Shown piece by piece: positions 5,837 to 60,106 of a DNA stretch of 64,000 nt. The notes beneath the pieces are model-generated. The model saw only the letters and a program-made list of their open reading frames with translations. It had not been told where the DNA came from and searched no databases. Source of the stretch: Candidatus Komeilibacteria bacterium RIFOXYD1_FULL_37_29 (lineage in GTDB: Bacteria > Patescibacteriota > Patescibacteriia > UBA1558 > GWA2-36-10); assembly GCA_001818495.1 (NCBI GenBank), contig MHKS01000005.1, forward strand, positions 466,584 to 530,583. Direction: 5' to 3'. Each line of letters starts with the position of its first letter. The stretch's first letter is position 1. Both the position numbers and the translations under genes were made by a program.

Positions 5837-6169
5837 TTATTTTAGAGCTTGTTTTATGCGGGCAGTTCGATTGAAAAAATTATAAGCATAGTCATCTAAG
5901 AATTTTTTTTGTTCATTGGAAAAATTTGGTATTTTGTTTTGCAAAAAATCATGCAGGTCTTCCGTTTTAGCATTTTTTTCAACCAACTCATAATATTCGT
6001 TTATATCCTGAGCTGATAATTTGCTTAAAAGAAAAAGACCCATCTTTTTTTCCAGTTGCTCAGCCAACCTCTCTACGTCAGTGGCGTCAATTTTGCCGCT
6101 AGCGTCGGTTAAATTAGCTTTACTCAGAAGGGCCGTAATAAAATCCTTAGAAAATGCTTTGTTTGCCAT
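5837..6169 (-). CDS. Hypothetical 110-aa protein, first gene of the operon that runs into the giant protein.
   Basis: ORF with tight spacing to the next gene. An AT-rich promoter-like region lies upstream at 6170-6282. Confidence 0.45.
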   Translation of the reverse strand: MANKAFSKDFITALLSKANLTDASGKIDATDVERLAEQLEKKMGLFLLSKLSAQDINEYYELVEKNAKTEDLHDFLQNKIPNFSNEQKKFLDDYAYNFFNRTARIKQALK

Positions 6170-17748: not shown

Positions 17749-19440
17749 TTAAAATTTTACAATTTCTCCTGGGTTTAATTTTTTTCCGTTATTTTTTGGC
17801 TGAACATTTTCAGATGATTGGGATTTTGTTTTCGCCATTGGCGGTTCTTTGGTGATTACTTTACGTCCTTTTAAAGCTTCGGCCAAAGAAGTAAATTCTT
17901 CTTCTCGACCATCATCAGATATTATTTTAATACTGGATGGTGGCGGTACTTTACCAGCTCTAGACAAATCTAAACATTCCCGACAATAGATTGGTTTGGT
18001 GGGATCTGGATCAAAATTTATCTTAGTTTTTTTACCACAAAGATCACAAACAGCGTCATGGCTAATACCTGTTTCTTTTTTCTTCCTATTTTTCTGGTCA
18101 GAATTATTTTTGCCAGTGAGAGTAGCCGTGGCTTTAGTTTTATTGGTCTCTTCCACACCACGATTTTCTGACCAACGAATAATTTTGTCCTCAATCACTT
18201 CTCGTGGCCGGGCGTATCTTTCTCTGGTCACAGAGATTATTTTATCTTTGGTGTCCAAATTTTCTTCAGCTAGTGACACCGGCGGCAGAGTCCGTGCAGA
18301 AAAAGCCTCGGAAGTAACTCCGTCAATCATTAATTTTATATAAATTTCAAATTTAGACAAATTAACCAGATCTTCTTGCGTAAAAGTTGGAAAAAATTCT
18401 TTTTCCAAAAACTCGGCATCAGCCGCCCCAACTCTAAAAACAACCAAGGTGCCGACATTACCAAAGACAGCGGCTTGGACATTTTCCTCTACCTGCTCAA
18501 TATACTGATGGGCAATGATTAGATTTAAACGGTATTTTCTGGCTTCAGATAGAATATTCGCAAAAGATTCTGTGGCAAAATTTTGAAATTCATCGACATA
18601 GAGATAAAAATCTTTTCTTTCTTCTTCTGGTGTATCCACTCTACTCATGGCGGCCAGTTGAATCTTGGTAATCATCATAGCCCCCAAAAGAGCCGAATTG
18701 TCTTCTCCGACGCGTCCTTTAGAAAGATTCAAGAGCAATATTTTCTGGCTATCCATGATGTCACGCATAGAAAAAGATGATCTAACCTGACCTAAGATAT
18801 TTCTAATTAGGGCTGAGGAAAGAAAACGACCGACTTTATTTTGAATCGGAGCAATGGCTTCAGCCTGGAATCTATCTGGATATTTACTATATTCTTCTAA
18901 CCAAAAAGCTTTGACCACTGGATCAGATAATTTTTCTACTACTTTTTTTCTAAAAGCTTTATCGGTCAACATACGCATAATGCCCAGTAAAGTAGAGCCA
19001 GGATACTCTAGTAGCGCTGAAATAGCATGATGGAGCACATATTCTAGTCTTGGTCCCCAAGAATCTGCCCAAATTTTTTGGAAGACTCCAATTAGACCAG
19101 AAACTACCAAATGTCTTTGTCCAGCATCGACTTGTTCCAAAACATTAAAACCAATTGGAAAATCCAAATCAGCCGGATTAAAATATATCACATCATTAAT
19201 GCGATGTTTTGGTACAAAATTTATGACCTTTTCCACTAGGTCACCATGCGGATCAACTACACAAACTCCTTTACCGTCTTGGATATCTTGAATAATCATA
19301 TTTTCCAAGACAGTAGATTTGCCCATACCAGTTTTACCAATAAAATACATGTGGCGACGGCGGTCGTCAGTTTTTATCCCAAACTTAACATTGGAATTTC
19401 TAAAGTTTGTTTCAGCAAAAATTGTAATGCGGTTATCCAT
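17749..19440 (-). CDS. VirB4/VirD4 (FtsK-HerA) superfamily P-loop ATPase. This is the stand-alone ATPase half of a split module and carries a C-terminal Zn-ribbon tail.
   Basis: Walker A is HMYFIGKTGMGKST, followed by VVDPHGDL. Walker B is FYLYVDEFQ. The C-terminus has CDLCGKK...CREC. It is a paralog of the C-terminal half of 32753-35206. Confidence 0.75.
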   Translation of the reverse strand: MDNRITIFAETNFRNSNVKFGIKTDDRRRHMYFIGKTGMGKSTVLENMIIQDIQDGKGVCVVDPHGDLVEKVINFVPKHRINDVIYFNPADLDFPIGFNVLEQVDAGQRHLVVSGLIGVFQKIWADSWGPRLEYVLHHAISALLEYPGSTLLGIMRMLTDKAFRKKVVEKLSDPVVKAFWLEEYSKYPDRFQAEAIAPIQNKVGRFLSSALIRNILGQVRSSFSMRDIMDSQKILLLNLSKGRVGEDNSALLGAMMITKIQLAAMSRVDTPEEERKDFYLYVDEFQNFATESFANILSEARKYRLNLIIAHQYIEQVEENVQAAVFGNVGTLVVFRVGAADAEFLEKEFFPTFTQEDLVNLSKFEIYIKLMIDGVTSEAFSARTLPPVSLAEENLDTKDKIISVTRERYARPREVIEDKIIRWSENRGVEETNKTKATATLTGKNNSDQKNRKKKETGISHDAVCDLCGKKTKINFDPDPTKPIYCRECLDLSRAGKVPPPSSIKIISDDGREEEFTSLAEALKGRKVITKEPPMAKTKSQSSENVQPKNNGKKLNPGEIVKF

Positions 19441-28759: not shown

Positions 28760-29461
28760 TCAATTTCCACCAAAACGACGCTGTCTCTTATTGTATTCTA
28801 AAATAGCTTTATCTAAATCTGCTTCCATAAATTCCGGCCAAGTCTTCTCTGGAAAATAGAGCTCGCTGTAAGTAGATTGCCAGGTTAAAAATCCCGACAA
28901 GCGCTCTTCCCCCGATGTACGGATAATCATATCTGGATCTGGTAGTCCAGCTGAGTCCAAATTTTGACTAATCAATTCCTGATCAATTTTATCAACGGTA
29001 ATTTTCTGAGCCACAATCTTTTTAAAAGCTCTCACTAGCTCATCACGACCACCATAACTAAGACAAATATTTAAGATGCCTCGCTGACCATTCTTAGTTT
29101 TCTCGCGGGCTTTTTTAATAGACTTTTGTAAGTCATGCTCAAAATCTTCCAGTCGGCCAAAAAAATTTACTTTGATACCCCGTTTAGACAATTTGTTTAT
29201 TTCTTTATTAACCAAAATTCTAAACAAATCCATCAAATAGGCTACTTCTTTTTTTTCTCTATTCCAATTTTCTGTTGAAAAAGCATAAACAGTTAAAATA
29301 TCTACACCTTTATCAAAAATATATTCAGCCGTTTTTTTAAGATTTTCAAAACCTAAACGATGTCCCTCAAAGGCTGGCAAACCTTTAGCTTTGGCAAAAC
29401 GGCGATTGCCGTCTAATATTATACCAATGTGTCTAGGAGTTTCCATAAAATTATTATACAT
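28760..29461 (-). CDS. uppS: Undecaprenyl diphosphate synthase.
   Basis: HIGIILDGNRRFAK and the RTSGEERLS motif are present. Length is 233 aa. Confidence 0.9.
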   Translation of the reverse strand: MYNNFMETPRHIGIILDGNRRFAKAKGLPAFEGHRLGFENLKKTAEYIFDKGVDILTVYAFSTENWNREKKEVAYLMDLFRILVNKEINKLSKRGIKVNFFGRLEDFEHDLQKSIKKAREKTKNGQRGILNICLSYGGRDELVRAFKKIVAQKITVDKIDQELISQNLDSAGLPDPDMIIRTSGEERLSGFLTWQSTYSELYFPEKTWPEFMEADLDKAILEYNKRQRRFGGN

Positions 29462-29469
29462 TTTTTATA

Positions 29470-29500
29470 ACAAAAAAACCACCCCAAAGAAGTGGCTTTT
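29470..29500 (-). terminator. Terminator after the second pilin-like gene.
   Basis: Minus strand reads AAAAAAGCCACTTCTTTGGGGTGG followed by TTTTTTTG. The stem is weak. Confidence 0.4.
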
Positions 29501-29512
29501 TTGTGTAGAGTA

Positions 29513-29887
29513 TTATCCAACAACAGTTTGTGCGTATAATTCACTCAATACAAATCTAGATACAGCATAAGCTACTAGTATGATAACCAAACCAACTACG
29601 CCAGCACCAATAAGCTTTTTAGCTTCATCAACCTTATCACTACTGCCATAAGAAGTCATCCATTTGAAACCACCAAAAAGAATAATCAAGGTAGTGAGGA
29701 TGCCTAAGAAACCCAAGATGATATTAACTACACCACCAATGGTGTCTCGAAGCGATCTTGATCCTAAGGCAATATCAGTGTTGGAGAAATCATTAAATCC
29801 CCAGTCATCTAAAGTAGTTTGAGCGTTAGCTGCTGCTGGAGCTAACAACAAAAGAAAAGTTAGTATTTTCTTCATAGAATTATGCAT
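29513..29887 (-). CDS. VirB2/TrbC-like pilin candidate with a Sec signal peptide and two hydrophobic helices. It is a paralog of the upstream gene.
   Basis: MKKILTFLLLLAPAAANA-QT is followed by two TM helices separated by a short polar loop. It is roughly 65% identical to the upstream protein. Confidence 0.5.
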   Translation of the reverse strand: MHNSMKKILTFLLLLAPAAANAQTTLDDWGFNDFSNTDIALGSRSLRDTIGGVVNIILGFLGILTTLIILFGGFKWMTSYGSSDKVDEAKKLIGAGVVGLVIILVAYAVSRFVLSELYAQTVVG

Positions 29888-29932
29888 TTACTAGTTAATT
29901 ATTTAATTAATTATTAATATATTAATATAGCA

Positions 29933-30289
29933 CTAAAATGTTTCGCTGTAAAGCTCACTAAGCACAAATCTGGAAATAGCATAAGCCGTTAAAACAATGA
30001 TTAAACCAATTGCTCCAGCTATGACCACGCCTTTACCTTTTTCACTTTTTTCGGCATTACCACCAGATGTCATCATATTAAATCCTCCCCACAAAATAGC
30101 GACTGTTGTTAATATGCCTAAAAAACCCAAAATGATATTAACTACACCACCAATGGTGTCTCGAAGCGATCTTGATCCTAAGGCTACTTCGGCATCTGTA
30201 AAATCATTATACCCCCAATCGTCTAAGGCGGTCTGAGCATTAGCCATTATTGGTGCTAAAAGTAGTGCAAAGGCTAATATCTTTTTCAT
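29933..30289 (-). CDS. VirB2/TrbC-like pilin candidate with a signal peptide and two hydrophobic helices.
   Basis: MKKILAFALLLAPIMANA-QT is followed by DDWGYNDF, then VVNIILGFLGILTTVAILWGGF, a loop, then VVIAGAIGLIIVLTAYAISRFVL. The ORF-track start at 30325 lies upstream of the predicted TSS, so the Met at 30289 is used instead. Confidence 0.5.
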   Translation of the reverse strand: MKKILAFALLLAPIMANAQTALDDWGYNDFTDAEVALGSRSLRDTIGGVVNIILGFLGILTTVAILWGGFNMMTSGGNAEKSEKGKGVVIAGAIGLIIVLTAYAISRFVLSELYSETF

Positions 30290-30316
30290 AAATAACTTAT
30301 TTTTATTAATACCTAT

Positions 30317-30345
30317 ATTATACACTAATTTTGGATATTTGTAAA
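30317..30345 (-). promoter_or_regulatory. Strong sigma70-type promoter for the pilin-like gene pair: TTTACA, a 17-nt spacer, then TATAAT.
   Basis: The minus strand reads TTTACA-AATATCCAAAATTAGTG-TATAAT. Confidence 0.6.
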
Positions 30346-30361
30346 TAAATTTTGGATATTT
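30329..30361 (-). promoter_or_regulatory. Two direct repeats AAATATCCAAAA spaced 21 bp apart. One overlaps the promoter spacer and the other lies just upstream of the -35; they are candidate operator sites.
   Basis: On the plus strand ttttggatattt occurs at 30329-30340 and at 30350-30361. Confidence 0.4.
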
Positions 30362-30379
30362 TAGCTATAAAATAGCCCT

Positions 30380-30399
30380 TTTGTTCGCTTGGTTCGGGG
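30380..30399. repeat. Copy 1 of a 20-bp direct repeat (tttgttcgcttggttcgggg). It duplicates the 3' end of tRNA-Gln plus the 10 bp downstream of it.
   Basis: Identical to 30475-30494. No intact tRNA is associated with this copy. Confidence 0.6.
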
Positions 30400-30474
30400 C
30401 GCTACGCTATTACGTAGCATCTTAGGTCACTCCGCGCCGTTGGCGGAGTATTCTCAGAAAGAACCTGCACTCAC

Positions 30475-30494
30475 TTTGTTCGCTTGGTTCGGGG
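30475..30494. repeat. Copy 2 of the 20-bp direct repeat, spanning the last 10 nt of tRNA-Gln and 10 nt downstream of it.
   Basis: Identical to 30380-30399. Confidence 0.6.
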
Positions 30495-30558
30495 ACAGGG
30501 ACTCGAACCCCGATTGACGGGACCAGAACCCGTTGTCCTACCATTAGACGATCCCCGA
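30485..30558 (-). tRNA. tRNA-Gln (anticodon CTG) with an encoded CCA.
   Basis: A manual fold of TCGGGGA TC GTCT AATGGTA GGAC A ACGGG TTCTGGT CCCGT CAAT CGGGG TTCGAGT CCCTG TCCCCGA A CCA gives a cloverleaf. The acceptor stem has a U1-A72 pair, which is typical of tRNA-Gln. Confidence 0.88.
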
Positions 30559-30563
30559 ATATC

Positions 30564-32063
30564 CTAAAGCATTTCTCCTCCAAACGTTTTCAATATGTCG
30601 CCTACTTCACTCTCGTTTTTTCCCTTGAAATCCTGATGATTGTGTCGATAATTTGGGTCTACTTCAAAGCTTAGGTCTATTTTTTTACCTAAAATATCAG
30701 CAAAAATAGTTAATAGCTTATCTCGCACCGACAAATTATCTAATTGTTCTTTATGAAAACCATATTCCAAGCCAATAATAAGTAAATTCCGTTCAATTGT
30801 CAAAGGATGACTGGTCTGAAGAATCATTGCTACTGAATGATTAAGAGTTTTAGCATTGGTCACCACTTGATGCCAATTATTTTGTAATTTTTTGATTTCT
30901 GGAGATCCGTCTAGCGGTTTTTTACTCTCTTTTTGAAAATTCTTAAAATCGCTAGTTTTTTCACTAGAGCTATCTTGAGCTAGTAAAAATTCTACGCAAG
31001 TTAATTCCAGTGGTAATTGAACAATTATGGTTTCTTTGATTGATAATTTCTCCAATATTATATTGAGCAACTTAGAAATATCCTCTAACAAAAAATCTTG
31101 GGCATGTTTTTTAATAGCTTGGGTCAAATTATCATCAAAATCAATCACAAAGCTTGGTCCGATAATCTTATAAAGCATTATCTGCCTGATATAGTTGACA
31201 AAATCAGCCATAAAAACCGACAAATCACTACCTTCGTCCACTAAATTATTTATCTGATTTAAAGCTGTCGAAAGATTTTTTACCCGTAAAGCTTCCACCA
31301 AAGAATCCACTGCTTGCCAATTACTACTGGGTAAAACCAAAGAGGCTAATTCCTCCGTTACTTTTCCACCGCTAATAGAAATCACTTGCCCCAATAGAGA
31401 CTCAGCATCTCTGAGACATCCCTCACTGCGTCTGGCAATTTCTGATAAGATGTTTTCTGGCACCTGCACTTTTTCCCATTCTATTATTTCTGTCAGGCGT
31501 TTGATAATATCTTTATTGGGAATTTTTCTAAAATCAAATCTCTGACAACGTGAAATTATAGTTTCTGGAACCTTGTTTATTTCTGTAGTAGCCAAAATAA
31601 AAATTACTTTCTTGGGTGGCTCTTCCAGTGTCTTGAGCAAAGCATTGAAAGCTGATTTGGAAAGCATATGTACTTCATCGATAATAAAGACTTTATAGCC
31701 CTGGCTATTAAAAGGTGGAATTTGAGAATTGGCAATAATATTATCCCGCACATTATCTACTCCGGTATTGGAAGCAGCATCAATCTCTATAATATCCATA
31801 GACCGGCCAGCTAAAATCATCTGACAATTAGCACACTGGCCGCATGGCTCAGCTGATTTTTCTTGACGATTGAGGCAATTTAAAGAACGAGCAAAAAGAC
31901 GAGCCAAGGTAGTTTTACCGGTGCCTCGAGTTCCCACAAATAAATAAGCGTGGGCTAGGTTCCCACTCAAAATTTCATTTTCCAAAGTAATTTTTATCGG
32001 CCTTTGACCGACAACTTCCTTGAAAAATTTTGGTCGATATTTTCTATAGATTACTTCTGACAT
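30564..32063 (-). CDS. dnaX: DNA polymerase III subunit gamma/tau.
   Basis: YRPKFFKEVVGQ is present. Walker A is GTRGTGKTT. The zinc module is CGQCANCQ. Length is 499 aa. Confidence 0.9.
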   Translation of the reverse strand: MSEVIYRKYRPKFFKEVVGQRPIKITLENEILSGNLAHAYLFVGTRGTGKTTLARLFARSLNCLNRQEKSAEPCGQCANCQMILAGRSMDIIEIDAASNTGVDNVRDNIIANSQIPPFNSQGYKVFIIDEVHMLSKSAFNALLKTLEEPPKKVIFILATTEINKVPETIISRCQRFDFRKIPNKDIIKRLTEIIEWEKVQVPENILSEIARRSEGCLRDAESLLGQVISISGGKVTEELASLVLPSSNWQAVDSLVEALRVKNLSTALNQINNLVDEGSDLSVFMADFVNYIRQIMLYKIIGPSFVIDFDDNLTQAIKKHAQDFLLEDISKLLNIILEKLSIKETIIVQLPLELTCVEFLLAQDSSSEKTSDFKNFQKESKKPLDGSPEIKKLQNNWHQVVTNAKTLNHSVAMILQTSHPLTIERNLLIIGLEYGFHKEQLDNLSVRDKLLTIFADILGKKIDLSFEVDPNYRHNHQDFKGKNESEVGDILKTFGGEML

Positions 32064-32752: not shown

Positions 32753-35206
32753 CTAAACCATAGCAATACGACTATTTATCTCGCTTTCCACTACCCTTTT
32801 ATCGCGACCATATCTTAAGCGAGATAATTCCTTTATACTTCTAGCTAATTCATAATTACCCTTTTCCGGTAATATTGGATTAAAATTAAAAGCTGGCGGA
32901 TTTTGATTATCAATTAATAACCTAATATAGCAGGTGTATTTGGGCATGTTGATAAGATCATATTCAGTCACTACCGGTGCCATTTGTTTGGCTATGACTT
33001 CAGCATCGTCTACTCCGATTCGATAAGATACCAATGTACCAACATTGCCAAAGACAGAATCTTTGACGCTAGTATTATTATTTTTAGTTAATTGAGCCAA
33101 AAATTGATGAGCTAAAATCAAATTTAATTTATACTTTCTAGCCTCTGATAATATCACTGAGATGCTTTCGGTAATATAATTTTGAAACTCATCAATATAC
33201 AAATAAAAGTCTGCCCTTTCTTCTTCTGGTATATCCACCCGACTCAAAGCGGCAAACAATATTTTTCCGATCATAATCATGCCCAAAAGACTACTATTCA
33301 TTTCACCAATGCGACCTTTGGATAAATTGATAATAATAATTTTATTTTCGTCCATAGCTTTTCGAAAATTAAAAGCTGACTTCGCCTGGGAAATAATCGG
33401 CCGAATAGTATCGTTAGATATAAAAGGCGTTAATTTACTAGTAATGTAGGGCACCATATTGGCCAAGGCCGCTTCACCACCGGCTTTTTGAGCTTCTTTT
33501 TCCCAAAAATCTTTCACTAATTGATTTTTGGCTTTGGCTAATTTCTTTTTTCTATATTCAGCATCAGATAAAACTTTGGGAATTTCTAATAGTGTAGCCG
33601 AATTTTCTTTATCATCCATCAAAAGTAACATAGTATTTCTCATGTATTGTTCAAAAATCGGGCCGCCCGTTGCTTTGAGATCATACAACTTATCAAAAAT
33701 AGCAATCATCTCGTTGATTACAAAAGTTTTTTGTTCTTCTGTTTCAAACTCTAGCATATTGATGCCAATAGGACGTTCGGTGTCTGATGGATCAAAAAAT
33801 ATTACATCTTCCGCTCTGGCTTTGGGCACATGAGACAAAATAGTTTCTGCCAAATCTCCATGTGGATCCAAAACGCAAACACCCTTGCCATTAGCTATAT
33901 CTTGAATAGCCAAACTCTCTAAAAAGACCGATTTACCAGTACCGGTTTGCCCGATGGTATACATATGCCGACGACGATCAGCATCTTTTATTCTGACTAG
34001 GGTTTCTTTGCCACGATAAATGCTTTTACCTAACACTACGCCTTCTCTTGGCATATCCGCCGGTGGAGCTGCTTTGGCTGCCTCTAACCAAGCGATATTG
34101 GGTGTTTCACTGGTGGGCAGGGGTAAATGAATAATACTAGTCATTTCTTCTGAATTCAAAATCATACTACGTTTAGGCAAAAAATGACGATAAATAAAAT
34201 GTTCAATGTAAGAATCATTTTTTTTGGGTATCTGGGCTCTAAAACTATTGCCAAACTCATAGATATTGAATTGACTGTAGCTATTTAAAATGTCATTCAA
34301 AATCATACCAGAACGCTCCGAGCTGGGTGTAGAGACAACTACTCTGATATTGACCTCGAGAGCGGATTTGGAAGTTTTTTCTTCCATAGCTTTGGCTCTT
34401 TCCTGCTCCATAGCAGACATAAGCGGTTTTTCCTGAGGTTTGTTTAGTGGTTTTTCTTTTTCTTTGGAAGCAACAAAAGTACCAAAAAATTTTAAAACTT
34501 TACTGAGATTACCCCAAAATCCACCACCGCCAAGTTTTTTAACAGCCTCATTGTAATGAATACCAGTATACATATACTTGGCTATTTTTTTGCCGCGCGC
34601 GTGCCACCGCGCCGGAGCAGAGCGAAAAACATATTGGACAGCCGCCCCCTCTCCGTCTTTTAATTTACTCAAAGAATTGGTAATGGCTTCTAGTGGATCA
34701 TTTTCAAAATGACGATAAGTTTTTATTGGTAAGCTATAATCATTGGTAAAATAAAGAATACCCGCCTTGATATGACCCTGGGGCTGAAAAATATTATAAT
34801 CAACCGCTAGTTCAAAATATATTTTAGGATAAACCGCTTGCAGTTGTTGGATTAAAAAATCTCTATAATTAGTCGGCGTGGCTATATAAAAATTTATAAA
34901 TCCGCCATCCGAAACAATTTCAGCGGAAAAAACATCCGTCCGTCGGCTAAACATTTTTTTCTGAATTCTTAGTCCACTTAGAGCGGCAAACAAATTTTCT
35001 ACTTGCCCCAATTGTGTCTGGACATAATCTTTACCATACTCCTCTTTTTTCTGTTTGGTATATTTTGGTATTTTGACTAAAAGTATCTCCTGTTGAAGAC
35101 TTTTATTGGATTTATTGTTAAAATAATTTAATAAAAAATAAACAAAAATGCCCAAGAAAATAATTCCTATCAATGAAACTATAGCTATAGTGATATATTC
35201 ATTCAT
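32753..35206 (-). CDS. Fused VirB4/VirD4-superfamily ATPase of 817 aa. An N-terminal TM helix and a domain of about 370 aa are followed by a P-loop ATPase.
   Basis: Walker A is HMYTIGQTGTGKSV, followed by VLDPHGDL. Walker B is FYLYIDEFQ. The N-terminal half is homologous to 19443-20933 and the C-terminal half to 17749-19440. Confidence 0.75.
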   Translation of the reverse strand: MNEYITIAIVSLIGIIFLGIFVYFLLNYFNNKSNKSLQQEILLVKIPKYTKQKKEEYGKDYVQTQLGQVENLFAALSGLRIQKKMFSRRTDVFSAEIVSDGGFINFYIATPTNYRDFLIQQLQAVYPKIYFELAVDYNIFQPQGHIKAGILYFTNDYSLPIKTYRHFENDPLEAITNSLSKLKDGEGAAVQYVFRSAPARWHARGKKIAKYMYTGIHYNEAVKKLGGGGFWGNLSKVLKFFGTFVASKEKEKPLNKPQEKPLMSAMEQERAKAMEEKTSKSALEVNIRVVVSTPSSERSGMILNDILNSYSQFNIYEFGNSFRAQIPKKNDSYIEHFIYRHFLPKRSMILNSEEMTSIIHLPLPTSETPNIAWLEAAKAAPPADMPREGVVLGKSIYRGKETLVRIKDADRRRHMYTIGQTGTGKSVFLESLAIQDIANGKGVCVLDPHGDLAETILSHVPKARAEDVIFFDPSDTERPIGINMLEFETEEQKTFVINEMIAIFDKLYDLKATGGPIFEQYMRNTMLLLMDDKENSATLLEIPKVLSDAEYRKKKLAKAKNQLVKDFWEKEAQKAGGEAALANMVPYITSKLTPFISNDTIRPIISQAKSAFNFRKAMDENKIIIINLSKGRIGEMNSSLLGMIMIGKILFAALSRVDIPEEERADFYLYIDEFQNYITESISVILSEARKYKLNLILAHQFLAQLTKNNNTSVKDSVFGNVGTLVSYRIGVDDAEVIAKQMAPVVTEYDLINMPKYTCYIRLLIDNQNPPAFNFNPILPEKGNYELARSIKELSRLRYGRDKRVVESEINSRIAMV

Positions 35207-46855: not shown

Positions 46856-47227
46856 GGTCTAAATAGACTGAGATGATTGCTACTTTTAGCGTAAGGCTAA
46901 TCGTAGAGGAAAGTCCGAACACCACAAAAAAAGGTAGTTGGTAACACCAACCGCTCCAAACGCAAGTTTGGCAGTAGGACAAGTGCAACAGAGAATATTC
47001 CTTCCCGCTTTGCGGGATAAGGGTGAAAATGTCGAATAATCAGTCGACACGTTTATATGGTGACATATAGAAAGAGGTAAACTTCTATCTGGTGTAAGGC
47101 CAAATAGAGCGGCGAAGGCCGCTGGGTAGGCTGCTTGAGGTTGTAAGCAATTACAATCCTAGATAGATGATCATCGTTTCAGTTTTACTGAAATTACAGA
47201 ATTCGGCTTATGAGGTCTATTTAGACC
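46856..47227 (+). ncRNA. rnpB: RNase P RNA, bacterial type A.
   Basis: The P1 helix pairs ggtctaaatagac with gtctatttagacc. The P4 motif GAGGAAAGTCCGAAC is present. AAGGGTGAAA, CTGGGTAGGCTGCTTGAGG, CCTAGATAGATGA and ACAGAATTCGGCTTAT closely match the E. coli M1 RNA 3' half. A T-tract follows. Confidence 0.93.
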
Positions 47228-59689: not shown

Positions 59690-60106
59690 TTAGCGGCTAT
59701 CTAAAGCTTTATTTACTAGGGCGTCAGCTTCTTTATTGAGCTCCCGCCGTATATGTTTGAAACTAATCTTTTTAAACTGAATGGCCAGATTCCAAGCTTT
59801 GACAAATGTCTTAGCCAAGCCTACTTCCTTGACTTTATATTCTTTATTTAGCTGTTTAACTACCAATTCACTGTCCAAATAACAAGACAACTCTTTAATA
59901 TTACTAGCTAAAGCCAATTCCAATCCTTTTATCAGGGCTGCATACTCGGCTTGATTGTTGGTAGTCTCACCAATATACTCTGAAAAAGTATCTATTTTTT
60001 CCTTTCCCTGATAAAGCACTCCACCGATAGCGGCTGGACCAGGATTACCCCTAGCTCCGCCATCAGTAAAAAGACGAGCGGCTGATTTTGTAGAAGGACT
60101 AACCAT
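59690..60106 (-). CDS. rnhA: Ribonuclease HI.
   Basis: FTDGGARGNPGPAAIGGVL...TNNQAEYAALIKGLELA is RNase H type 1. Confidence 0.85.
   Translation of the reverse strand: MVSPSTKSAARLFTDGGARGNPGPAAIGGVLYQGKEKIDTFSEYIGETTNNQAEYAALIKGLELALASNIKELSCYLDSELVVKQLNKEYKVKEVGLAKTFVKAWNLAIQFKKISFKHIRRELNKEADALVNKALDSR

Follow-up and report, generated by a model that had tools for sequence, protein, structure and literature searches.

A conserved RNA-like module that copies and complements the 3' end of tRNA-Gln in a clade of Patescibacteria

The tRNA-Gln gene of Candidatus Komeilibacteria bacterium RIFOXYD1_FULL_37_29 is followed directly by a module of ~95 nt that ends in an exact copy of the last 10 nt of that tRNA and also carries a short complement to this end. 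The module lies at 30390..30484 on the minus strand of a 64,000-nt stretch of contig MHKS01000005.1, here called the window (the whole stretch of DNA that was analysed), and was delimited with a covariance model, an alignment and folds. Among Patescibacteria, one clade, the Komeilibacteria and their relatives, has it as part of the transcription unit of tRNA-Gln. I put the probability at roughly one half that this is a structured RNA, co-transcribed as a trailer of the tRNA and bearing a mimic of its 3' end. This reading builds on the anatomy of the module, its conservation and covariation, its position between the tRNA and the terminator, and a tail that tracks the tRNA of each genome; under it, the module would be transcribed, processed and would accumulate as RNA.

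An earlier interpretation of the window, the sequence-only reading, had noted that the duplicated tRNA end looks like an attachment (att) scar, as left by an integrating element. The duplication does bound a discrete insert, but a plain decaying scar is unlikely because the spacer is a conserved element with covariation of the kind seen in RNA.

Results

The tRNA-Gln(CUG) gene occupies 30485..30558 on the minus strand, is 74 nt long and begins 5 nt downstream of the dnaX stop (ARAGORN; Rfam RF00005, 59.1 bits; sequence). Its acceptor stem is UCGGGGA/UCCCCGA and its discriminator is A73. Because the Rfam tRNA model stops at the discriminator (30488), the CCA that follows is encoded in the gene. 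The 20-mer TTTGTTCGCTTGGTTCGGGG occurs at exactly two sites in the window, 30380-30399 and 30475-30494, as the sequence-only reading had noted; a third site was not found there even with up to three mismatches allowed, and no match arose in 100 shuffles. On the minus strand the repeat opens with CCCCGA-A-CCA, made up of six acceptor bases (67-72, 3' strand), the discriminator and CCA, and goes on with ten trailer bases, AGCGAACAAA. The first tail copy, CCCCGAACCA at 30485..30494 (minus strand; sequence and repeat search), is the genuine 3' end of the tRNA. The second, at 30390..30399 on the same strand, is an exact mimic of it and the probable 3' strand of a closing stem. Only 75 nt of DNA lie between the two copies of the 20-mer. 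The outer copy was correctly described as lacking a tRNA body: ARAGORN finds one tRNA, and Rfam finds none further at E<=10. The repeat measures 20 bp, not 10, because AGCGAACAAAA (30379..30389, minus strand), the first 11 nt of a truncated second tandem unit, survives after the second tail. A long-range fold between the 5' strand of the tRNA and the distal tail was also considered; any duplication yields it automatically, and it was not taken as evidence.

From its 5' end, the module comprises a conserved 5' block, a variable middle hairpin, a conserved junction, a tail-adjacent hairpin and the second tail copy, all on the minus strand. The 5' block is AGCGAACAAAGUGAGUGCAGGUUC in the window (30461..30484; alignment) and takes the form AGCGAACAAAGUGAGCGCAGGCUC as shared across six lineages; its last five bases (30461-30465), GGUUC, complement the GAACC of the tail and are called the anti-tail here. 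The middle hairpin (30430..30448; sequence, alignment and folds) is CUCCGC/7-nt loop/GCGGAG. Its site is conserved and its sequence differs by lineage: among the relatives, here given by locus number, L098 has the stem of the window, L096 has ACGACGC/GCGUCGU, and L007 and L015 have GGCUCGG/CCGAGUC. The junction, ACCUAAGAU (30419..30427), is predicted to be single-stranded and consists of invariant alignment columns; shared across six lineages it reads CCUAAGAUGCU, and the motif UAAGAUGCU is still present in the decayed variants L003 and L008. The tail-adjacent hairpin (30400..30419), GCUACGU-AAUA-GCGUAGC, has 7 bp and is followed by G and then by the second tail, and in the family it likewise has 7 bp and an AAUR loop, then G and the tRNA tail of its own genome. 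The ends of the module in their family form are AGCGAACAAAGTGAG… and …CCTAAGATGCT-hairpin-GCG. The two perfect 6-bp stems picked out by the sequence-only reading, gctacg/cgtagc (30401-06 and 30413-18) and ctccgc/gcggag (30430-35 and 30443-48), are present and fall within these two hairpins.

A covariance model from six lineages matches 30390-30484 (minus strand) at 88.5 bits (E 4e-21), the window copy being one of its training sequences. Run over 714 kb of loci, it returned the six training members only and no extra copy; a match in L003 (E 0.028) lay on the wrong strand, over the tRNA, and was discarded as spurious. Rfam 15 at E<=10 gave nothing on the module, the only matches in the window at gathering threshold being tRNA and RNase P, and full-text literature searches returned no description of such an element. 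It is a clade-specific, RNA-like module tied to one tRNA and, with no Rfam family matched, undescribed.

The same module stands directly after tRNA-Gln in five other lineages, with DnaX identities to the window of 71% (L007), 67% (L098), 66% (L096), 65% (L015) and 63% (L016). The genes downstream of it vary (pilin, Gmad2 or others), and in L016 the tRNA is separated from dnaX by 390 nt; the module therefore travels with tRNA-Gln and not with the pilin genes. A hairpin and U-tract come after the last tail in L007, L015, L016 and L098, and come directly after CCA in L095 and L097, two loci that lack the module. Wherever a terminator is recognisable, the module is upstream of it. Its position thus places it inside the tRNA transcription unit and implies co-transcription.

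The repeat is not due to chance: within 300 nt downstream of tRNA-Gln, 10 independent lineages have its last 10 nt a second time with no more than one mismatch, whereas the control regions, upstream and antisense, never do. Three distinct tRNA tails each have an exact downstream copy: CCCCGAGCCA in most lineages, CCCCGAACCA in the window and CTCCGAACCA in L040, a Komeilibacteria metagenome-assembled genome with a DnaX identity of 47%. In the window, the derived A73, the A of the second tail and the U of the anti-tail changed together; its closest relatives all have G73. L022 has a tail copy of 14 nt with a long hairpin before it. Tandem tails occur in L015 (three) and L007, and the modules between them differ in sequence. 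A tail with AGCGAACAAAA before the pilin promoter is common to the window, L002, L006 and L011, and the truncated second unit is therefore older than the split of these lineages.

Conservation, RNAalifold and covariation tests were based on six full-length sequences (window, L007, L015, L016, L096 and L098). At this divergence the fourfold-degenerate sites of dnaX are saturated, being 25-50% identical among lineages. Identity in the 5' block is 75-96% among five of the six lineages and 50-67% where L096 is concerned; in the 3' block without the tail it is 68-89%. RNAalifold predicts a closing stem GGYUC/GARCC, an internal hairpin and the tail-adjacent hairpin. In the closing and tail-adjacent stems, 72 of 72 cells are standard pairs, and sliding the partner columns lowers the share to 20-36%. 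Four pairs have changed on both sides, and the covariation score is 0.411 as against 0.209 ± 0.037 for shuffles, none of which (0/500) reach it. The tail-adjacent hairpin alone has seven pairs, 100% paired in the six lineages, with three pairs changed on both sides and five kinds of stem (GCUACG, GCUGUGC, GCUGAGC, GCUGGAC and GCUGGGC). The GGYUC/GARCC pairing is kept in 6/6, the window having a compensatory change from C-G to U-A. Folds of single sequences give the same architecture in five of six, with z-scores of -2.3 to -5.9; in the L015 fold a second GGCUC closes onto the tail. On these comparisons the tail-adjacent hairpin is a well-supported structure and the closing stem a probable one. 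Conservation above neutral together with compensatory changes, the general mark of a structured non-coding RNA, is what these six sequences display. The second repeat copy, which the sequence-only reading had allowed might turn out to be part of a small RNA, does appear to be so on both counts, an outcome which that reading had itself named as telling against an att scar.

Clean empty sites were found in L005, L095 and L097, where a promoter or terminator comes straight after the tRNA CCA. Other loci hold remnants: L003 keeps the 3' block and has lost the tail, L002 and L006 retain 36 nt and a tail, and L008 has a rearranged 92-nt version. The sequence of L001 stops before the tRNA. A neighbour-joining tree of DnaX is star-like, with full and empty sites interleaved. 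L006 and L008 have flanks that are ~100% identical over kilobases and wholly different sequence between the two tails, the difference lying within a ~700-bp patch of raised divergence. These signs of turnover fit three explanations: repeated loss by recombination between tails, import by homologous recombination, or mobility.

Two tandem paralogues of a type IV secretion system (T4SS) pilin lie beyond the outer repeat copy at 29933-30289 and 29513-29875 (minus strand; PF18895, E 7e-10 and 5e-08) and are 72% identical over 259 nt; among relatives, pilin copy number at the locus is one to three (e.g. L003, L095). Their near-consensus promoter, TTTACA-17-TATAAT (30345->30317, minus strand), is a neighbour outside the module, and relatives conserve it whether they have the module or not. 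Both the promoter and the pilin-like pair stand just past the outer repeat, as described before. The -35 hexamer of this promoter lies between two copies of a 12-nt sequence, TTTTGGATATTT (gene strand: AAATATCCAAAA), repeated directly at 30329-30340 and 30350-30361 (21-nt spacing); a regulator of the pilin genes could use it as an operator.

The sequence-only reading had raised the possibility that the pilin genes arrived by integration at tRNA-Gln. This must be rejected, because the pilin genes lie outside the repeats and keep their place in L005, L095 and L097, where the site is empty. The order lepA, two small genes, a gene for a VirD4/TrwB-like coupling protein, a 194-aa gene, dnaX, tRNA-Gln, 1-3 T4SS pilin genes, uppS, a beta-propeller gene, a methyltransferase gene and ddl recurs in relatives whose DnaX is 64-84% identical, empty sites included. 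Among relatives the tRNA-Gln site is occupied in some and empty in others, and the pilin genes are present at the empty ones. Nor is their composition atypical, with a GC content of 0.362 against 0.359 for the window, which is flat at ~0.36. None of the 48 window proteins scanned with Pfam is an integrase, recombinase or transposase; all are housekeeping, T4SS-like or without a domain match. On the chromosome, the pilin genes are long-standing neighbours of dnaX and tRNA-Gln, not cargo.

Further copies of the 20-mer, which might have marked a distal attR, were not found: the exact sequence is absent from the genome collection. Pattern scans of viral contigs for an attP gave either no match or chance matches in coding DNA. 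The generalised form CCCCGARCCAAGCGAACAAA matched two homologous tRNA-Gln loci in the metagenome collection, besides two chance matches, both in high-GC coding DNA.

Several further features of the region were recorded. The best promoter-like match, TTGACA-17-TATTAT (11/12; 30775-30803, minus strand), lies within the 3' part of dnaX, ~217 nt upstream of tRNA-Gln, and is a candidate dedicated promoter for the tRNA and module. A tRNA-Gln gene shortly 3' of dnaX is found in many distant Patescibacteria (loci L017-L092, with DnaX identity down to ~35%), and the linkage is therefore ancient in the phylum. Tail copies were seen only in genomes with a CCA-encoding tRNA-Gln. Hairpins after CCA often pair CCA with a downstream UGG (in L003, and after the last tail in L007, L016 and L040). 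The pairings include CCAUCCUUC/GAAGGAUGG in L040, CCAUGAA/UUCAUGG in L003 (6582-6630) and CAUCCU/AGGAUG in L016, and the motif GUCGCUCA recurs in these segments. In L002, dnaX has a run of 11 A (6120-6150) against 10 A in L006, splitting DnaX into 382 aa and 99 aa; the 382-aa form is on record in many independent assemblies. Such a slippery poly-A run is reminiscent of the tau/gamma frameshifting, or the slippage in transcription, that dnaX undergoes in other bacteria.

Across the window, nearly every gene is on the minus strand and has a housekeeping role. A bacterial class A RNase P RNA (46861-47226, plus strand, 224 bits) is among the very few plus-strand features. Two TrwB/VirD4-like homologues are encoded on the minus strand at 17749-19440 (563 aa, treble-clef zinc finger) and 32753-35206 (817 aa, DUF8128), and a protein with an RNase H/RVT_3 domain is encoded at 59690-60106.

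Discussion

What kind of element copies the end of the tRNA that it follows and also carries a complement to it? If the module is a structured trailer RNA, its predicted fold would be a closed domain in which the GARCC that ends the tail copy is paired with the anti-tail, GGYUC or at most GGCUCGGG. This closing stem would surround the variable hairpin, the unpaired junction CCUAAGAU and the 7-bp hairpin that abuts the tail. The tRNA would fold first, and the anti-tail, which might otherwise invade the 3' strand of the tRNA acceptor, would be captured by the downstream tail copy. The result would be a compact RNA ending in a tRNA-like ...RCCA, whose 3' end could be defined or protected by the machinery that matures CCA-encoding tRNAs. 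The outcome would be either a stable, trailer-derived small RNA that is released or a cis-acting processing element. A second unit once stood in tandem, of which the first 11 nt are left.

Several observations weigh against the structured trailer RNA. Its distribution is patchy, with clean empty sites beside occupied sisters on the DnaX tree, and it is dispensable, because the tRNA persists in lineages without it. The unlike modules in tandem (L015 and L007) and the strain-level exchange of the segment between L006 and L008 are more like mobile or recombining DNA than like a housekeeping RNA. Furthermore, there are only six full-length sequences, the closing stem has one independent compensatory event (that of the window), the alignment used for counting pairs is the one that yielded the structure, and the anti-tail has an alternative internal partner in three lineages.

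The patchiness, the tandem modules and the strain-level exchange favour a serious, if doubtful, competitor: a miniature non-autonomous mobile or att-flanked element, whether a derivative, resembling a cis-mobilisable element (CIME) or a miniature inverted-repeat transposable element (MITE), of an element integrating at the extreme 3' end of tRNA-Gln, or the product of repeated integration and internal deletion. The tail copies would then be attL/attR cores or target-site duplications, the conserved blocks would be ends recognised in trans, and the variable middle would reflect independent internal deletions. Direct repeats of the tRNA 3' end (10-20 nt) flank the insert, and since they bound a segment that is present or cleanly absent in relatives (L005, L095 and L097), the geometry is that of an insertion footprint. 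Integration or target duplication would make the identical tail automatic. Occupied and empty sites interleave on the DnaX tree, tandem tails hold differing modules in L015 and L007, more module types occur in L022, L040, L006 and L008, the segment between the tails has been replaced within a species (L006 and L008), and the ends of the module are conserved while the middle varies.

Against mobility, there is no recombinase, integrase or transposase among the 48 window proteins, and a listing of open reading frames (ORFs) over the 3 kb downstream in L015 and L016, made without a scan of domain libraries, gave no obvious candidate. No larger occupied version was seen at any locus examined, and the conserved blocks were found neither in viral contigs (pattern searches) nor in phage and plasmid records (blastn). 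The module ends lack terminal inverted repeats, and no dispersed copies were found in the window or the 714 kb of loci, as would be looked for in a MITE or insertion sequence. The copies differ by 16-40%, too much for a recent spread. It is, moreover, implausible that an integrase would act on a duplex circle of 85-95 bp. Finally, compensatory changes in the hairpin and covariation between anti-tail and tail are not expected of att arms bound by protein. An insertion-type origin followed by constraint at the RNA level is conceivable, so that the structured trailer RNA and the mobile element are compatible and not exclusive.

Two less conventional ideas build on the complementarity itself. It is possible, though unlikely, that the module is a tRNA-linked riboregulator of a new class, carrying both a complement and a decoy of the tRNA-Gln 3' end, discriminator and CC included. 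Such an RNA would toggle between closing on itself and pairing with the acceptor end of the tRNA, in cis (in the precursor) or in trans, and could sense or control tRNA-Gln maturation, CCA status or charging in organisms with minimal RNA processing. Just as unconventional is the alternative that the anti-tail guides a mini-element lacking a recombinase to the 3' end of tRNA-Gln.

It is very unlikely that the module is a pseudo-tRNA, a decayed tandem duplicate of tRNA-Gln that keeps only the 3' end. The stretch from anti-tail to CCA (74-76 nt) has the length of the tRNA, the 5' strand (C)UCGGG resembles the UCGGGG of the tRNA, and the tail-adjacent hairpin sits in the place of the T-arm. However, neither ARAGORN nor the Rfam tRNA model matches anything there, even at E<=10; there is no T-loop and no similarity to a D-arm or anticodon arm; and the closing stem takes in N73, C74 and C75, leaving no NCCA overhang. 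An identity of 70-96% in blocks that are not tRNA-like, with covarying stems, would also be unexpected at saturated divergence. The missing model match and the wrong stem register largely refute this origin.

Still less probable is a small protein, MLxN[SG]xAPR..., read from the conserved AUG in UAAGAUGCU with the tail as part of its coding sequence. Between 11 and 25 codons are open from this AUG in all six lineages, and in the window GGAG stands 9 nt upstream. Yet GCG CCC CGA is invariant, without a synonymous change, though the silent sites of dnaX are saturated, and codons 3 and 6 vary exactly as the compensating pairs of the hairpin do. Neither length nor C-terminus is conserved, Shine-Dalgarno spacing is inconsistent, and the frame over the tail differs in L008. 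The ORF was rejected for its invariant codons, hairpin-paired variation and unconserved C-termini. Last and least likely, chance, one-off replication slippage or a duplicated terminator are refuted by the comparative data: slippage can make short direct repeats and the region is intergenic, but shuffles gave no match, tails occur in 10 lineages and in no controls, no terminator-like site lies within 29400-31200, and in relatives the terminator comes after the module.

The distinction matters because partial tRNA 3' ends are routinely taken as island boundaries, and an island reading here would mislabel a conserved type-IV-secretion-like pilin cluster as horizontally acquired. Were the module expressed, it would give a phylum whose non-coding RNAs are almost unstudied a new example of an RNA that derives from a trailer or mimics a tRNA end; were it mobile, it would be an element of unusually small size with the 3' end of a tRNA gene as its target.

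Comparison with known systems

Islands mobilised by integrases use att sites in tRNA genes, where attL and attR flank the island, a tRNA 3' fragment is displaced and crossover takes place at the extreme 3' end; cis-mobilisable elements flanked by att sites are also known. The module resembles these in being bounded by a repeat of the tRNA 3' end, in having empty sites and in accumulating tandem tails. Unlike them, it is an insert of 75-112 nt without genes, of normal composition and with no integrase found, and its repeat core is 10 nt in most lineages and accompanied by conserved blocks and covarying, RNA-type helices. Of the features of an att-bounded island, the flanking repeat and an unoccupied site were therefore found, whereas an integrase, cargo and an absence of the pilin genes from empty sites were not.

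tRNA-like elements that direct processing include mascRNA, released from MALAT1, and the t-elements of plant mitochondria. Like these, the module is small, structured and presumably part of a longer transcript, with an acceptor-like 3' end that could suit tRNA-processing enzymes. Unlike these, it has neither cloverleaf nor T-loop, its discriminator and CC would be paired, leaving no NCCA overhang, and it lies directly 3' of a genuine tRNA whose tail it copies exactly. The Rfam mascRNA model matched only the tRNA itself, at 16.9 bits, below threshold.

Small RNAs are also derived from 3' external transcribed spacers of tRNAs, such as the sponge RNA from the leuZ trailer of E. coli. The module is likewise encoded in a tRNA trailer, before the terminator. 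RNAs of this kind are not known to contain a copy of the 3' end of their own tRNA or a complement to it.

Finally, in the antiterminator of T-box leaders, UGGN pairs with the NCCA end of the tRNA. Here too a segment complements, and covaries with, the 3' end of a tRNA, the discriminator included. The module differs in lacking a specifier loop, a T-box sequence and any match in Rfam, in standing downstream of a tRNA and not upstream of a regulated gene, and in that its complement would be occupied in cis by the mimic of the tail. Among the systems compared, this module uniquely both copies and complements the tail of the tRNA beside it.

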